This document shows positions 5,191 to 48,400 of a stretch of DNA of 64,000 nucleotides, piece by piece. The stretch lies in NCBI RefSeq assembly GCF_044704955.1, contig NC_091988.1, positions 52,638,001 to 52,702,000 on the forward strand, in the 5' to 3' direction. The position numbers and the translations under genes are program-made. Within the stretch, counting starts at the first letter, position 1. Each line of letters starts with the position of its first letter. The notes beneath the pieces are model-generated. The model saw only the letters and a list, made by a program, of their open reading frames with translations. It ran no database searches and was not told the origin of the DNA. Source of the stretch: Pristiophorus japonicus. Taxonomy: Eukaryota.

Positions 5191-5652
5191 TGGGAAGGGA
5201 GGTGGTGAAAGGGCAGGTGTTGCACCTCCTGCTCTTGACTAATGTCTCTAGAGGGCAGAATTGAGGAGCGCAGACATCTCGGGGGTTTGTGGGGCTGGAG
5301 GAGATTACAGAGATAGGGAAGCATGAGGCCATGGAGGGATTTGAAAATAAGGATGAGAATTTTGAAATCGAAGCGTTGCTTAGCCGGAGCCAATGTAGGT
5401 CAGCGAGCACAGGGGTGATGAGTAAGCGGGACTTGGTGCCAGTTAGGACACGGGCAGCCGAGTTTTGGATCATCTCTAGTTTACAAAGTTCAAGCTCAAT
5501 CCCTGGTCACCGGATCTGATATTGGCCAGGATGGACCTTTGACCTGTGGTACATGTTCACTGAACCTCTGTGAACATTCTTTTCTTCAAAATTAAAGATT
5601 TTGCAGATTTTAAATCAATTAGTATTCTGTGAAATTAGGTTTCCAGTCTCAC

Positions 5653-6288: not shown

Positions 6289-7380
6289 CATGTCAAGAAA
6301 TGACCCTCAGCCTTTCACAAAAGATGTATAAAGTAACGGATGCCGAGCCGACAAGAGAGAGGTTGACCAAAACTTTGGTCGAAGAGACCAGGTTTGAGAA
6401 GGCTTTTAAAATGGTGCAGTGAGAGGTAGGGAAGGAGATCCAGAGAGAGGCTCCACCAGCAAAAGGGGCGAAAGAAGGTGGGTGTATACGAGTCCAGAGC
6501 CAATCGAAATGCTCGATCAAGATTCGACACAGGGATGGAGAAAGGTGCAAAGAAAACATATGATGAGAGCTTGGAGGGATTTATAGATGCAGACGATGAT
6601 TTTAACTATTTGTCGCGGTATGGGGAACCAGTGCAGAGAAACAAGGATGGGAGTGATGGGTGAATAAGACACGTTGCAGGACAGGATATGAGCGGCACAG
6701 TTTTAGACAGGTTACAGTGAAGTCAGCATTGCTAAGGTAGTATCGGCTTTTTTTTTTCCTTATTGGGAAAAGAGGGAAAAATAGAAAGAAGGGTAGCAAG
6801 ATTTGAGGGTGCACAGGTCAAAAGGGGAGGCTGGTTGCCAGTAATTGTGATGGTAATGATGCCGATCCCTGCTCAGCTAATAGCAGCCGGCTAGATACAG
6901 ATCAGATACATCAAGCAGATCTTTTCCAGTTGGTAGACCTAGCAAAAGAACCAAAGGTGACACAAGAAAAACATTTTTACGCAGCGAGTGGTTAGGATCT
7001 GGAATGCACTGCCTGAAGGGGTGGTGGAGCAGACTCAATCACAGCTTTCAAAAGGGAGTTGGTTAAGTACCTGAAAGAAATACATTTTCAGGGCTACGGG
7101 GAAAGGGTAGGGGGAATGGGACTAGCTGAGAGTTGGCACGGGCTCGACGGGCCGAATAGCCTTCTTCCATGCTGTAACCATTCTATGATTCTATGACAAG
7201 GCAGCTTTCCAGGAGGCCTTTTTAAAAACACAACATTAAATGAAGATATGTATTCTCAAGAAGGAGTTCAATAAACAGAGAATGGAAAAGGACTGCACAA
7301 ACATGCTATCATTATTCGAGAAACAAAACGCACACTGTGGCTTCACTCGACTGCAGAGCACATCACTAAGGCCAGCTCAC

Positions 7381-42559: not shown

Positions 42560-43000
42560 GAAGAAAGGTTGAGCAGCTTGGGCCTATACTCATTGGAATT
42601 TAGAAGAATGAGAGGTGATCGTATTGAAACGTATAAGATTCTGAGGGGGCTTGACGGGGTAGATGCAGAGAGGATGTTTCCCCTCATGAGGGAATCTAGG
42701 GGACATGGTTTCAGAATAAGGGGTCACCCATTTAAAACAGAGATGAGGAGGAATTTCTTCTCTCAGAGGGTTATGAATCTTTGGAATTCTCTACCCCAGA
42801 GAGAGCTGTCGAGGCTGGGTCATTGAACATAATTAAGGTGGTGATAAAAATATTTTTGAATGATAAGGGAGTCCAGGGTGATGGGGAACAGGCAGGAAAG
42901 TGGAGTTGAGGTCAAGATCAGATCAGCCATGATCTTATTGAGCAGGCTCGAGGGGCCAAATGGCCTACTCCTGCTCCTCTTTCTTATGTTCTTATGTTCT
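42560..43000 (+). mobile_element. CR1 3' fragment
   Basis: LGLYSLEFRRMRGD ORF and ttcttatgttcttatgttc tail. Confidence 0.9.
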
Positions 43001-44765
43001 TTTTAAAAATTACACCCAAATGAAAACTAAGAGGAATATTCAATATCACAAAACATTTTTCTCACTTTTATTCCTTTTTAAAATTAGTTTATTTTTTAAA
43101 TGCTTCTTTCTAATTCTACTTAAATGATATAATCTTTTTTATATTTTTTAGCTAGTATACCACAGAGAAGATGAAAGAAAATGCTGCAGCCATATTGGAC
43201 ACTATCAGCATGTGCAGTTGAAAGAGACACACACAACCAAATCTCTTGAGAATCAAAAAAGTGAGATTTTTTTTGAAATTATGCATGTTGGCAAATTTAG
43301 TAGTTCTCAGGATTAAATCAATAAAATCTGACTGTAGCTAAATCCAGAGATTTTTAATTTATCTGTATAAAAGATATATATTTAAAAACTGAAAATAATG
43401 AGCCTAATGTGTCTGGCAGGTTGCAGTGATGGGTCTCCAGGGGCCCTGGGAGGGAAGTCTAATTTTCTTGAAACTCAAAACATCTAACCTTTTGATCTTT
43501 CATATCATAGAGGGATTATAGGTCACTCAGCCTATTATGTACTTTTAAGGATGTTCCATGATTGACAGTAATTTCACTCCACACTCAGCACTGCGCACCT
43601 CCAATTCTGGCCTCTTGCGCAACCCCAATTTTCATCGTTCCACCATTGACGGCCGTGCCTTCAGCTGCCAAGGCCGTAAGCTCTAGAATTCTCTCCCTAA
43701 ACCTCTCCAGCTCTCTCTTCTTTCAAGATGCTCCTTCAAACCTATCTCTTTGGCGAAACTTTTGTTCTCCTGTCTGAATATCTGTGTGTGTGACTCGGTG
43801 TCAAATTTTGTCTGGTAATGCTCCTGTGAGGTGCCTTGATGCATTTTACTATGTTAAAGGCACCAAAGAAATACAAGTAGATTACATCAGGTTGTTGCTC
43901 CTAGATCAACGGTGAGTACGATGTCTGTTTAACAGTGTGAAGTCTCAGAGTAAAAGAGGAGTAGTGACATTAACGGGCATATCTCCATCACTTTCCGGTA
44001 GAGTTGTGGTTGCCAGCATGAGCTATGTTTACAGAACATGAGCTATGCTTATAAGAACATAAGAATTAGGAACAGGAGTAGGCCATCTAGCCCCTCGAGC
44101 CTGCTCCGCCATTCAATAAGATCATGGCTGATCTGGTCGTGGACTCAGCTCCACTTACCCGCCCTCTCCCCGTAACCCTTAATTCCCTTATTGCTTAAAA
44201 ATCTATCTATCTATCTTTGACTTGAAAACATTCAATGAGCCAGCCTCAACTGCTTCCTTGGGCAGAGAATTCCACAGATTCACAACCCTCCGGGAGAAGA
44301 AATTCTTTCTCAACTCGGTTTTAAATTGGCTCCTCCATATTTTGAGGCTGTGCCCCCTAGTTCTAGTCTCCCCCACCAATGGAAACAACCTCTCTGCCTC
44401 TATCTTGTCTATCCCTTTCATGATTTTAAATGTTTCTATAAGATCACCCCTCATCCTTCTGAACTCCAAGGAGTAAAGACCCAGTCTACTCAATCTATCA
44501 TCATAAGTTAACCCCCTCATTTCTCGAATTAGCCTAGTGAATCGTCTCTGTACCCCTTCCAAAGCTAGTATATCCTTCCTTAAGTAAGGTGACCAAAACT
44601 GCACGCAGTACTCCAGGTGCGGCCTTACCAATACCTTATACAGTTGCAGCAACACCTCCCTGCTTTTGTACTCCATCCCTTTCGCAATGAAGGCCAACAT
44701 TCCATTTGCCTTCCTGATTACCTGCTGCACCTGCAAACTAATCTTTTGGGATTCATGCACAAGGA

Positions 44766-44836
44766 GCCGGGCGCGGTGGCGCGCGCCTGTTATCCGGCGA
44801 CTCGGAGGCTGAGGCTATCGGATTACTCAAAAGAGT
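44766..44836 (+). mobile_element. 71-bp 7SL RNA (Alu-domain)-derived insert with a Tx1-shared tail; candidate SINE1 or 7SL/Tx1 chimera
   Basis: Begins GCCGGGCGCGGTGGCGCGCGCCTGT...GGAGGCTGAGGCT, matching the 7SL 5' end from nucleotide 1. Ends ACTCAAAAGAGT. Flanked by the 14-bp direct repeat TTCATGCACAAGGA. Confidence 0.85.
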
Positions 44837-44850
44837 TTCATGCACAAGGA

Positions 44851-45499
44851 CCTGCAATTTCTGCGGTCTGGAAGAGTCTGTGTTCCATGTTTTTATGGAA
44901 TGCACAAGGTTGCAGCCCCTGTTTTATTATTTGAAGGGGCTGCTCCTGAAATTCTGGCTGCACTTCAGTCCCACTCTCCTGATCTTTGGGCACCCTGTGC
45001 GGAGGGGAGCGGGTAGGTCCGAAGGCCTCCTCGTAGGACTGCTCCTGGGCACGGCCAAGGGTGCCATCAGCCGGTCCAGGCAGCGGGCGGTCGAGGGGGT
45101 CGTTCAACCTGACTGCCTGCCTCTCTTCCGCTCTTACATCCGGTCCAGGGTGTCCTTGGAGATGGAGCACGCGGTGTCCACCGGTATGCTCGCGGCCTTC
45201 CGCGAGAGGTGGGCACCGGAGGGACTGGAGTGCATCATCACGCCCGGCAACCAAATTTTAATTTGATTTTACGTTTTAAAGTTTAATTTGTTTTAATTGC
45301 CGGTGCTTTTAGTGTCCCCCTCTCCTTTTATAGGGGGCACTGGAAAAAGGAAAATTTGATTTTAGTGCCCAAAAAAAAACCCACAAAAAAACCCCCAAAA
45401 AAAACAAAAAAAAAGGGCCTTGTAAATGTCTTGTGTGTGTCATCCAGGTCGGGTGGCACGGATACATGTTTTATGTTTTGCAGGTTAACTCAAAAGAGT
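44851..45499 (+). mobile_element. 5'-truncated Tx1-clade LINE (ORF2 C-terminal zinc finger and 3' UTR)
   Basis: Open frame CNFCGLEESVFHVFMEC...LLLGTAKGAI...FRERW, typical of the L1/Tx1 ORF2 C-terminus, stop at 45266. A-rich UTR ends in ACTCAAAAGAGT. Flanked by TTCATGCACAAGGA(CC) repeats. Confidence 0.85.
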
Positions 45500-48400
45500 T
45501 TCATGCACAAGGACCCCCAGGTCCCTCTGCACCACAGCATGTTGTAATTTCTCCCCATTCAAATAATATTCCCTTTTACTGTTTTTTTTCCCAAGGTGGA
45601 TGACCTCACATTTTCCGACATTGTATTCCATCTGCCAAACCTTAGCCCATTCGCTTAACCTATCCAAATCTCCTTGTAGTCTCTCTGAGTCCTCTACACA
45701 ACCCGCTTTCCCACTAATCTTAGTCTCATCTGAAAATTTTGTTACACTACACTCTGTCCCCTCCTCTAGGTCATCTATGTATATTGTAAACAGTTGTGGT
45801 CCCAGCACTGATCCCTGTGGCACACCACTAACCACTGATTTCCAACCGGAAAAGGACCCATTTATCCCGACTCTCTGCTTTCTGTTCGCCAGCCAATTCT
45901 CTATCCATGCTAATACATTTCCACTGACTCCGCGTACCTTTATCTTCTGCAGTAACCTTTTGTGTGGCACCTTATCGAATGCCTTTTGGAAATCTAAATA
46001 CACCACATCCATCGGTACACCTCTATCCACCATGCTCGTTATATCCTCAAAGAATTCCAGTAAGTTAGTTAAACATGATTTCCCTTTCATGAATCCATGC
46101 TGCGTCTGCTTGATTGCACTATTCCTATCCAGATGTCCCACTATTTCTTCCTTAATGATAGTTTCAAGCATTTTCCCCACTACAGATGTTAAACTAACCG
46201 GCCTATAGTTACCTGCCTTTTGCCTGCCCCCTCTTTTAAACAGAGGCGTTACATTAGCTGCTCTCCAATCCGCTAGTACCTCCCCAGAGTCCAGAGAATT
46301 TTGGTAGATTATAACGAATGCATCTGCTATAACTTCCGCCATCTCTTTTAATACCCTGGGATACATTTCATCAGGACCAGGGGACTTGTCTACCTTCAAT
46401 CCCGTTAGTCTGTCCAGCACTACCTCCCTAGTGATAGTGATCATCTCAAGGTCTTCCCTTCCCACATTCCTATGACCAGCAATTTTTGGCATGGTTTTTG
46501 TGTCTTCCACTGTGAAGACGGAAGCAAAATAATTGTTTAAGGTCTCAGCCATTTCCACATTTCCCATTATTAAATCCCCCTTTTCATCTTCTGAGGGACC
46601 AACATTTACTTTAGTCACTCTTTTCCGTTTTATACATCTGTAAAAGCTTTTACTATCTGTTTTTGTTTTGCGCAAGTTTACCTTCGTAATCTATCTTCCC
46701 TTTCTTTATTGCTTTTTTAGTCATTTTTTGCTGTTGCTTAAAATCTTCCCAATCCTCTAGTTTCCCACTAACCTTGGCTACCTTATACACATTGGTCTTT
46801 GATTTGATACTTTCTTTTATTTCCTTGCTTATCCACGGCTGGTTATCTCTTCTCTTGCCGCCCTTCTTTTTCACTGGAATATATTTTTGTTGCGCATTAT
46901 GAAAGAGCTCCTTAAAAGTCCTCCACTGTTCCTCAATTGTGCCACCGTTTAGTCCTTGTTTCCAGTCTACTTTAGCCAACTCTGCCCTCATCCCACTGTA
47001 GTCCCCTTTGTTTAAGGATAGTACTCTCGTTTCTGACACAACTTCCTCATCCTCAATCTGTATTACAAATTCAACCATATTGTGATCACTCATTCCGAGA
47101 GGATCTTTTACGAGGAGATCGTTTATTTTTCCTGTCTCGTTACACAGGACCAGATCCAAAATGGCTTGCTCCCTTGTAGGCTCTGTTACATACTGTTCTA
47201 AGAAACAATCCCGTATGCATTCTATGAATTCCTCCTCCAGGCTACCCCCTGCGATTTGATTTGACCAATCGATATGTAGGTTAAAATCCCCCATAACTAC
47301 TGCCGTTCCTTTTTCACATGCCTCCATTATTCCCTTGATTATTGCCCGCCCCACCATGAAGTTATTATTTGGGGGCCTATAAACTACGCCGACCAGTGAC
47401 TTTTTCCCCTTACTATCTCTAATCTCCACCCACAATGATTCAACATTTTGTTCATTGGAGCCAATATCATCCCTCACAACTGCCCTGATATCATCCCTTA
47501 TTAACAGAGCTACCCCACCTCCCTTCCCTTCCTGCCTATCTTTCCGAATCGTCAGATACCCCTGTACGTTTAATTCCCAGTCCTGGCCACCTTGCAACCA
47601 TGTCTCTGTAATGGCCACCAAATCATACCCATTTGTAATGATTTGTGCCGTCAACTCATTTACTTTATTTCTAATGCTGCGTGCATTTAGGTATAGTGTT
47701 TTCATCCTCGTTTTTAAACCATGATTTTTAGTTTTTACCCCTCCTGCAGCCCTTTTATATTCAGTGGCCCTTTTTGTTTCTTGCCTTTGGTTTCTCTGCC
47801 CTCCACTTTTACTCATCTCTTTTCTGTCTTTTGTTTTTGTCTCCTTTTTGTTTCCCTCTGTCTCCCTGTATTGGTTCCCATCCCCCTGCCATATTAGTTT
47901 AACTCCTCACCAACAGCACTAGCAAATACTCCCCCTAGGACATTGGTTCCGTTCCTGCCCAAGTGCAGACCGTCCGGTTTGTACTGGTCCCACCTCCCCT
48001 AGAACCAGTTCCAATGCCCCACGAATTTGAATCCCTCCTTGCTGCACCACTGCTCAAGCCACGTATTCATCTGTGCTATCCTGCGATTCCTACTCTGACT
48101 AGCACGTGGCACTGGTAGCAATCCCGAGATTACTACTTTTGAGGTCCTACTTTTTAATTTAACTCCTAGCTCCTTAAATTCGTCTCGTAGGACCTTATCC
48201 CTTTTTTTTTACCTATGTCGTTGGTACCAATGTGCACCACGACAACTGGCTGTTCTCCCTCCCGTTTCCAGCTATAATCCAGCTCCTTCGCAGTCAAGGG
48301 GCGTTATCACTTCAAGCCGACAGCACCACCTCATTTCAGAAACACTCACAGTTTAACACAGAAACACAGAAACACAGAAATTTACAGCGCAGAAGGAGGC

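Follow-up and report, generated by a model that had tools for sequence, protein, structure and literature searches.

The 64,000-nt stretch of Pristiophorus japonicus DNA analysed here (the window; contig NC_091988.1, positions 52,638,001 to 52,702,000) contains, within the second open reading frame (ORF2) of a CR1-type long interspersed element (LINE), two different inserts at one 14-bp site: a 5′-truncated LINE of the Tx1 type and a short element headed by 7SL RNA sequence. Exact copies of the 14-mer TTCATGCACAAGGA lie at 44752-44765, 44837-44850 and 45500-45513; elsewhere in the window its sole match has two mismatches, and a shuffled window gives a mean of 0.81 matches at up to two mismatches. 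The host ORF lies on the minus strand and reads ...DLGVLVHE into the repeat. The part of the host upstream of the target, encoding the endonuclease and the reverse transcriptase (RT) with a frame break, spans 45514..47705 (minus strand; identified by translation, RT homologs and an RT tree), and its 3′ part, comprising the ORF2 C-terminus, the 3′ untranslated region (UTR) and a short-repeat tail, spans 44051..44751 (minus strand, by translation). Between the first and second target-site copies (44752..44765 and 44837..44850, plus strand) lies insert 1, which is 71 bp long and consists of nt 1-59 of 7SL RNA (44766..44824, plus strand), a single-copy capture identical at 59 of 59 positions to the genomic 7SL genes L078 and L079, and of a 12-nt tail (44825..44836, plus strand) exactly matching the terminal hairpin of the Tx1-type element. 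Between the second and third copies (the latter at 45500..45513, plus strand, after which the CR1 resumes) lies insert 2 of 649 bp, which translates on the plus strand as the C-terminal coding end of ORF2 (44851..45266) and continues into a 3′ UTR without poly(A) (45267..45499), including stem-loop 1 (45438-45458) and the terminal hairpin (45488-45499). Aligned to a full-length genomic Tx1-type copy, insert 2 matches positions 6540-7184 at 96.3% identity, and its 5′ junction shows a 2-nt CC microhomology with the target. The motif ACTCAAAAGAGT is found at 44825-44836 and 45488-45499, immediately 5′ of the second and third copies of the 14-mer. The three exact repeats at the DLGVLVHE site of a CR1 ORF2, and the two inserts antisense to the CR1 that both end in ACTCAAAAGAGT before a repeat, thus lie where the initial annotation had placed them, and a truncated Tx1 insertion and a 7SL capture very probably took place in the window as distinct events at the same site.

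Full-length copies of the inserted LINE measure 7.2 kb, and matches spaced 7.2 kb apart represent head-to-tail copies within one CR1 site. Several of the full-length copies carry uninterrupted ORFs of 702 and 1306 codons stop-to-stop, corresponding to an ORF1 of about 700 amino acids, for which no Pfam match was found, and an ORF2 of about 1300 amino acids with Pfam matches to Exo_endo_phos (PF03372, E 5.7e-10), RVT_1 (PF00078, E 8.5e-38) and, under its cut-off, zf-RVT (E 8.1e-5). The ORF2 product is identical to that of Xenopus Tx1L at 643 of 1297 positions (50%; 62% in the RT region), and Tx1L is the best curated name among the 120 ORF2 homologs listed. In an RT tree of 23 rows the element falls inside an 18-row group holding Tx1L (100/100), the closest named relative in the tree being a ray protein with 75% identity (sister at 83/82); to the disadvantage of this placement, the tree was built without an L1 outgroup and without a CR1-labelled reference. 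The 3′ UTR is free of poly(A) and contains a stem-loop 1 in which pair 4 shows compensatory change, being A-T in 62 and C-G in 52 of 115 tails, which are related copies and not independent ones. In the first subfamily, to which a sister is described below, the stem of the terminal hairpin runs on into the first bases of the target. Going by its sequence, the element is in all probability a young, recently active retrotransposon without long terminal repeats (LTRs), of the Tx1 type.

The target lies about 715 nt from the 3′ end of the host CR1, and the 3′ part of a LINE is the portion that truncated copies keep. The host RT is 38-75% identical to the 120 homologs listed, of which the named ones come mainly from birds and also from turtle, frog and ray, and bird LINEs of the kind matching it are, as we take it, CR1. 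It groups with four of these homologs at 100/100, and none of the homologs is labelled CR1. The CR1 flank ends at its 3′ side in 8-nt tandem repeats, not poly(A), in the window and in six other loci, and the label CR1 is based on RT resemblance and this repeat tail, not on a labelled reference. The flank at 44051..44751 is 92-97% identical to the flanks of seven other occupied loci, with the same end point. An older CR1-like 3′ fragment with a TTCTTATG-type tail was seen by eye at 42560-42995 of the window (plus strand).

The initial annotation proposed that a Tx1 family specifically targets this CR1 site, and suggested looking across the genome for the tail followed by the target. That arrangement was found at 5,442 places in the 5.9-Gb genome and at none in the reversed control, and is therefore not a matter of chance; with a shorter tail motif the genome-wide count of junctions rises to 15,664. 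When Tx1 tails were chosen by the tail alone, the exact start of the target came next in 482 of 591, which, together with the 50% identity of ORF2 to that of Tx1L, bears out the proposal. The first 100 of these tails comprised 82 at the exact target, six at one-base variants, one at a CR1-like homologous site (by eye), one in the array at locus L068 and 10 elsewhere, among them one inside Tx1 sequence. Thus, 88 of the first 100 sit at the target or a one-base variant of it and not at random sites; on the other side of the balance, about 10% of tails are off target, so that specificity is strong and not absolute. Insertion takes place antisense to the CR1 at one codon of ORF2, with a fixed 3′ junction and frequent 5′ truncation, and the inserts at the CR1 site range from 12 nt to 7.2 kb. 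At left junctions, target sequence continues for 14 nt in 37 of 60 cases and for 9-18 nt in the others. The exact site was counted 6,450 times as an occupied right junction and 25,161 times empty, an occupancy of about 20% that is based on exact-match counts and includes some duplicated loci. Comparison of the copies establishes, at the sequence level, a fixed antisense 3′ junction at a codon of the CR1 ORF2, a usual 14-bp duplication, truncation, arrays and a sister subfamily. Very probably, then, a recently active 7.2-kb non-LTR retrotransposon of the Tx1 type uses a CR1-type LINE as its landing site.

The association with CR1 could also be one of hitchhiking, in which CR1 retrotransposition or segmental duplication copied a small number of Tx1-in-CR1 composites many times over. 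Loci L001-L004 (G000:C1, 0.2-3.2 Mb) are indeed of this sort: they are 98.8-99.9% identical over 3 kb, with the same CR1 and the same 33-nt Tx1 stub, and are a larger repeat or segmental duplication, so some of the counts above include duplicates. Against hitchhiking as a general explanation, many truncation points were seen in 28 loci, with identity in only 3 of 492 between-locus pairs; the flanking CR1 copies are 92-98% identical and their outer flanks unlike; and inserts span 12 nt to 7.2 kb, with a second CR1 family entered at the same codon. The diversity of 5′ junctions leads us to reject the spread of one composite for most copies, for which it would be a most improbable origin, and to retain it for L001-L004.

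Several further observations concern the site. The left flanks of arrays C, D, O, P and Q and of L195, all independent occupied loci, belong to a CR1 variant in which a stop codon sits directly at the targeted codon; a shared 5′ transduced flank was considered for this variant and rejected, the flanks being independent CR1 copies 93-95% alike. Among the first 30 loci of each search, L053 and L151 have a longer duplication of about 30 nt at the target site, and L008 has a 117-nt repeat that takes in the CR1 left flank, which suggests a variable second cut. At L184, off-target short tails lie in a TTCTATGA-type repeat that resembles the end of another LINE or short interspersed element (SINE).

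A sister subfamily, about 80% identical to the first at the 5′ end and about 90% over whole copies, occupies the homologous codon of another CR1 family, where a reading by hand gives LVHR/S in place of LVHE/S, with 1,243 junctions at this second target. The tail of the first subfamily was found there in none of the 30 loci that came first in the search and nowhere genome-wide. The first target does receive some tails resembling the second subfamily, frequently with a register shift of one base: by genome-wide counts they account for 77 of the roughly 145 junctions that are shifted and for 782 of the 15,664 in normal register. These tail counts also reveal an intermediate subfamily, which weakens the argument from the register shift. 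Two more points tell against that argument: the shift fits a shifted nick equally well, and the one-base-longer first-subfamily junction predicted for the second CR1 family was found zero times, a result that is uninformative. Residues of ORF2 at about 21, 64-67, 74 and 159 from the first Met, in the endonuclease, are fixed or nearly fixed as differences between the subfamilies (22 versus 5 copies) and are candidates for the difference in target. Full-length copies in the second CR1 family (L101-L120) have a duplication of about 8 nt and, at its end, microhomology with the 5′ end of the element.

As to how insertion starts, we consider it rather likely that the endonuclease nicks the bottom strand and that the RT primes there, aided by 3-5 nt of read-through target sequence on the 3′ end of the RNA. 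Among 100 short inserts listed, 10 have the form tail+TTC(A)+tail, one of them with a base change (hand count); such inserts are expected if the RT restarts on an RNA whose end includes a few bases of the target. TTC still stands at the start in nine of 10 copies lying off target. Variant duplications are carried whole through the arrays L071 and L023, so that the 14 bp would come from DNA, and the RNA would give a few bases only. Endonuclease preference by itself could account for what is seen off target and in register. Among short inserts, the 12-nt tail standing alone is the most frequent (60 of 100 listed, out of 170; hand count), and this, together with the unique captures described next, makes it probable that the RT halts at the hairpin and at times resumes on a different RNA. 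It is quite probable that the RT often stalls past the 12-nt terminal hairpin and then either stops or jumps to a pre-transfer RNA (pre-tRNA), U1 or 7SL RNA. A unique chimera such as insert 1 would be the product of such a jump, the alternative being ligation of the RNAs before reverse transcription.

The initial annotation regarded insert 1 as a 7SL-headed short element moved by the Tx1 machinery, a SINE. Delivery by that machinery stands, because the 7SL piece has the same tail and the same duplication; a SINE family does not, since there is one junction genome-wide. Insert 1 matches Rfam Metazoa_SRP at E 4.8e-10, under the gathering score, and shows no private mutation relative to L078 and L079, which are complete 7SL genes (251 bits in Rfam). 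In the 5.9-Gb genome the target followed by the 7SL head forms a single junction. An exact 25-mer of the head occurs at three places, namely the two 7SL genes and the window, and a 21-mer allowed up to two mismatches occurs at 10, seven of these being near matches known by count. Only the last 12 nt of insert 1 are shared with the Tx1 element, and the conserved stem-loop 1 is absent. Similar layouts are frequent. All 42 inserts of 57-87 nt that matched consist of 40 plain truncated tails, insert 1 and one with a U1 3′ half; among inserts of 84-114 nt, small-RNA-like heads were recognized by eye in 21 of 100 listed out of 140 matches. The 20 capture loci examined are all different; Rfam called a tRNA in 14 of them, ARAGORN in 13 and either in 15, and most captured pre-tRNAs have a leader, a trailer and a tail of about 9-15 nt. 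Insert 1 is one of many unique captures of pre-tRNA, U1 or 7SL, and not a SINE.

Individual captures are of interest in themselves. At L121 (G000:C28:5204400-5206200), the 3′ half of U1 small nuclear RNA (snRNA) is followed by a few downstream bases and the 12-nt tail, inside the 14-bp duplication (E 1.7e-8). L142 (G000:C1:450638994-450642013) holds a complete tRNA-Lys(TTT) gene, a spacer, a second tRNA, a trailer and a short tail as one insertion at the CR1 site, and is a retrocopy of a two-tRNA transcript; the second tRNA, which ARAGORN could not name, is presumably an intron-containing Arg tRNA. Heads resembling tRNAs or tRNA-derived SINEs were noted by eye at L006, L163, L164, L195 and L204-L207, and were unconfirmed by Rfam or ARAGORN where tested.

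It is most improbable that insert 1 nevertheless belongs to a 7SL-derived SINE family, of very recent origin or low copy number, that Tx1 moves in trans. Its 7SL head, Tx1 tail and shared duplication would all be expected of such a family, Tx1-Mar of crocodilians is described as moving SINEU into a Mariner element (PMC4494074), and hagfish is reported to have a 7SL SINE (PMC7245038). Set against this are the single junction in 5.9 Gb, the three exact heads of which two are genes, the absence of private mutations, the missing covarying stem-loop 1 of the Tx1 3′ UTR, and the same layout in many unique tRNA and U1 captures. The family was rejected as a candidate because of the one junction, the head identical to the genes, the lack of private mutations and the layout shared with unique captures. 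An assembly artefact at the triple repeat or the 7SL junction, for which one could cite that no contig among the matches listed spans the stretch, is very unlikely indeed: the order of duplication, head, short tail and duplication recurs in 20 other unique captures and the junction itself in thousands, and the 7SL piece begins exactly at nt 1. A scan of metagenomes for the stretch gave no matches; contigs of other organisms, from four of 14 data sets in six studies, contain CR1 and Tx1 parts, with no junction among the matches listed, and none of the 14 is listed as RNA.

The head-to-tail arrays point to a further step. At loci taken as the first 30 of each search, adjacent truncated units share the same 5′ breakpoint in 17 of 21 pairs (7 of 9 arrays) versus 3 of 492 pairs between loci; eight of the 17 come from one array, and the count leaves out the pair at L008, which duplicates the CR1 flank with no tail joined and would otherwise make it 18 of 22. 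In arrays hand-picked from clustered matches, neighbours with the same breakpoint have unlike 3′ UTRs, with 9-51 differences versus 0-6 coding differences in most pairs. These differences concentrate at, and extend to, the 3′ end, the tails being unlike to within about 10 nt of the end. Of 18 pairs of full-length neighbours, also from hand-picked arrays, 10 have the 5′ end in common over at least 200 nt, and over as much as about 5 kb, compared with 0 of 339 pairs between loci. L071 carries one variant duplication and one breakpoint across nine junctions with six tail types, and in L068, at a non-CR1 junction, a single breakpoint is common to eight units, among which there are seven tail types. 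A ninth unit of L068 is truncated at a point of its own, with the non-CR1 junction duplicated over 14 nt, which shows that array junctions serve as fresh insertion sites. In array F, a 15-nt mini-unit plus a 5′ part recurs four times with a new tail each time, and in arrays P, Q and R short units recur with each full-length unit. We lean towards a model from these sequences in which a new cDNA, primed at the upstream duplication, would pair with the homologous resident element downstream and be finished on it, the new unit thereby taking over its neighbour's 5′ end together with anything in between.

Not all arrays conform to this model, and the following weigh against it: A5-A7 are plain duplicates with 0-3 differences, and there are two pairs of whole duplicates; among the full-length neighbours, the 3′ end alone is shared in 2 of 18 pairs, and in 6 of 18 neither end is common to both over 200 nt. 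Such duplicate, 3′-shared and unshared pairs indicate that DNA-level duplication, recombination or assembly expansion also contributes. One might go further and suppose, for the array step only, that arrays arise by unequal crossing-over or replication slippage, with tails swapped by gene conversion from dispersed copies and with no pairing of cDNA and resident. The perfect duplicates A5-A7, the alternation of units E1/E3 versus E2/E4 and the two 3′-shared pairs would then follow, and duplicated truncated R2 elements in stick insects have been ascribed to unequal recombination (PMC4370867). We regard this as possible and the less likely account, because the differences concentrate at and reach the 3′ end, because tails unlike to about 10 nt from the end leave little homology for conversion, and because a fresh 14-nt duplication is present at an array junction of L068. 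Completion of the new cDNA on the resident unit remains the explanation that we favour for the arrays.

Comparison with known systems helps to place the element. The known targets of Tx1 elements given in PMC4494074 comprise DNA transposons, LTR elements, snRNA genes, satellites and microsatellites. Tx1L of Xenopus laevis (YTX2_XENLA) likewise inserts into another transposon, Tx1D (PMC4494074); its target is a non-autonomous DNA transposon, whereas the target here is the coding region of a LINE. In crocodilians, Tx1-Mar, Tx1-8_Crp, Tx1-4_AMi and Tx1-9_AMi prefer Mariner, LTR retrotransposons and Harbinger (Kojima 2015, PMC4494074), and no LINE or CR1 target is named for them in the portions of that paper drawn on here. 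Tandem insertions that sandwich a duplication and small-RNA heads, in crocodilians added by template switch, are common to the crocodilian elements and the present one. However, the crocodilian families are old (85-91% identity to consensus) and have poly(A) tails, in contrast to the young, poly(A)-free element described here. A three-level system of SINEU on Tx1-Mar on Mariner-N4_AMi has been presented for crocodilians, so that the concept of a SINE on a Tx1 element on a transposon, which the initial annotation inferred here, had already been published (PMC4494074). SINEU elements form genuine families of many copies, in contrast to the captures here, each of which is unique, and the same test is used in that work to separate SINE families from independent chimeras (PMC4494074). 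The Drosophila R1 element in 28S rDNA resembles the present element in its 14-bp duplication, fixed 3′ junction and 5′ microhomology (Stage and Eickbush 2009, PMC2718515), and in having arrays of duplication-separated units built by insertion at the 5′ copy, but it belongs to a different clade and its target is rDNA. Shared 5′ breakpoints with mixed tails were not found reported for R1 in the portions of PMC2718515 drawn on here. For R1Bm and SART1Bm, it has been proposed that a short target-like 3′ end of the RNA pairs with the strand that was nicked, and such an end makes insertion more accurate (PMC7265360); the evidence for RNA-target pairing is experimental there, and here it comes from junctions alone. 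Mammalian snRNA-L1 chimeric retrocopies similarly have a small RNA 5′ of a LINE 3′ fragment within one duplication (PMC4494074), unlike which the captures here are mostly pre-tRNAs with leader and trailer, usually with a tail of about 9-15 nt only, at one repeated site. A Tx1 element targeting CR1 or any LINE was not found in our literature search, which did not extend to Repbase, Dfam or subscription journals, and an earlier description is possible.

Taken together, the evidence supports LINE-in-LINE targeting well and does not support the SINE; the three-level idea was already known. Use of a coding site in one LINE as the target of another would constitute a new class of target and a direct element-versus-element interaction. 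There is perhaps an even chance that the broader picture is also right, namely that of a LINE lineage specialised on the coding sequence of a rival LINE, with subfamilies tracking the same codon, about a fifth of the young targets interrupted, its own insertions used as repair templates, and pre-tRNAs and other small RNAs delivered at a high rate. If so, truncated cDNAs would become full-length units and arrays would grow at already-occupied sites, and the small-RNA captures would be a visible nursery of intermediates in the birth of SINEs. Intact young copies, two target variants supplied by nature and over 15,000 junctions make three questions testable: how the apurinic/apyrimidinic endonuclease (APE)-type enzyme and the 3′ end of the RNA share in choosing the target, in what way the 5′ junction and the second strand are completed, and how small RNAs gain LINE tails when a SINE is born. 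A precise, poly(A)-free vertebrate element that makes a 14-bp duplication would, moreover, be a candidate for site-specific gene delivery.

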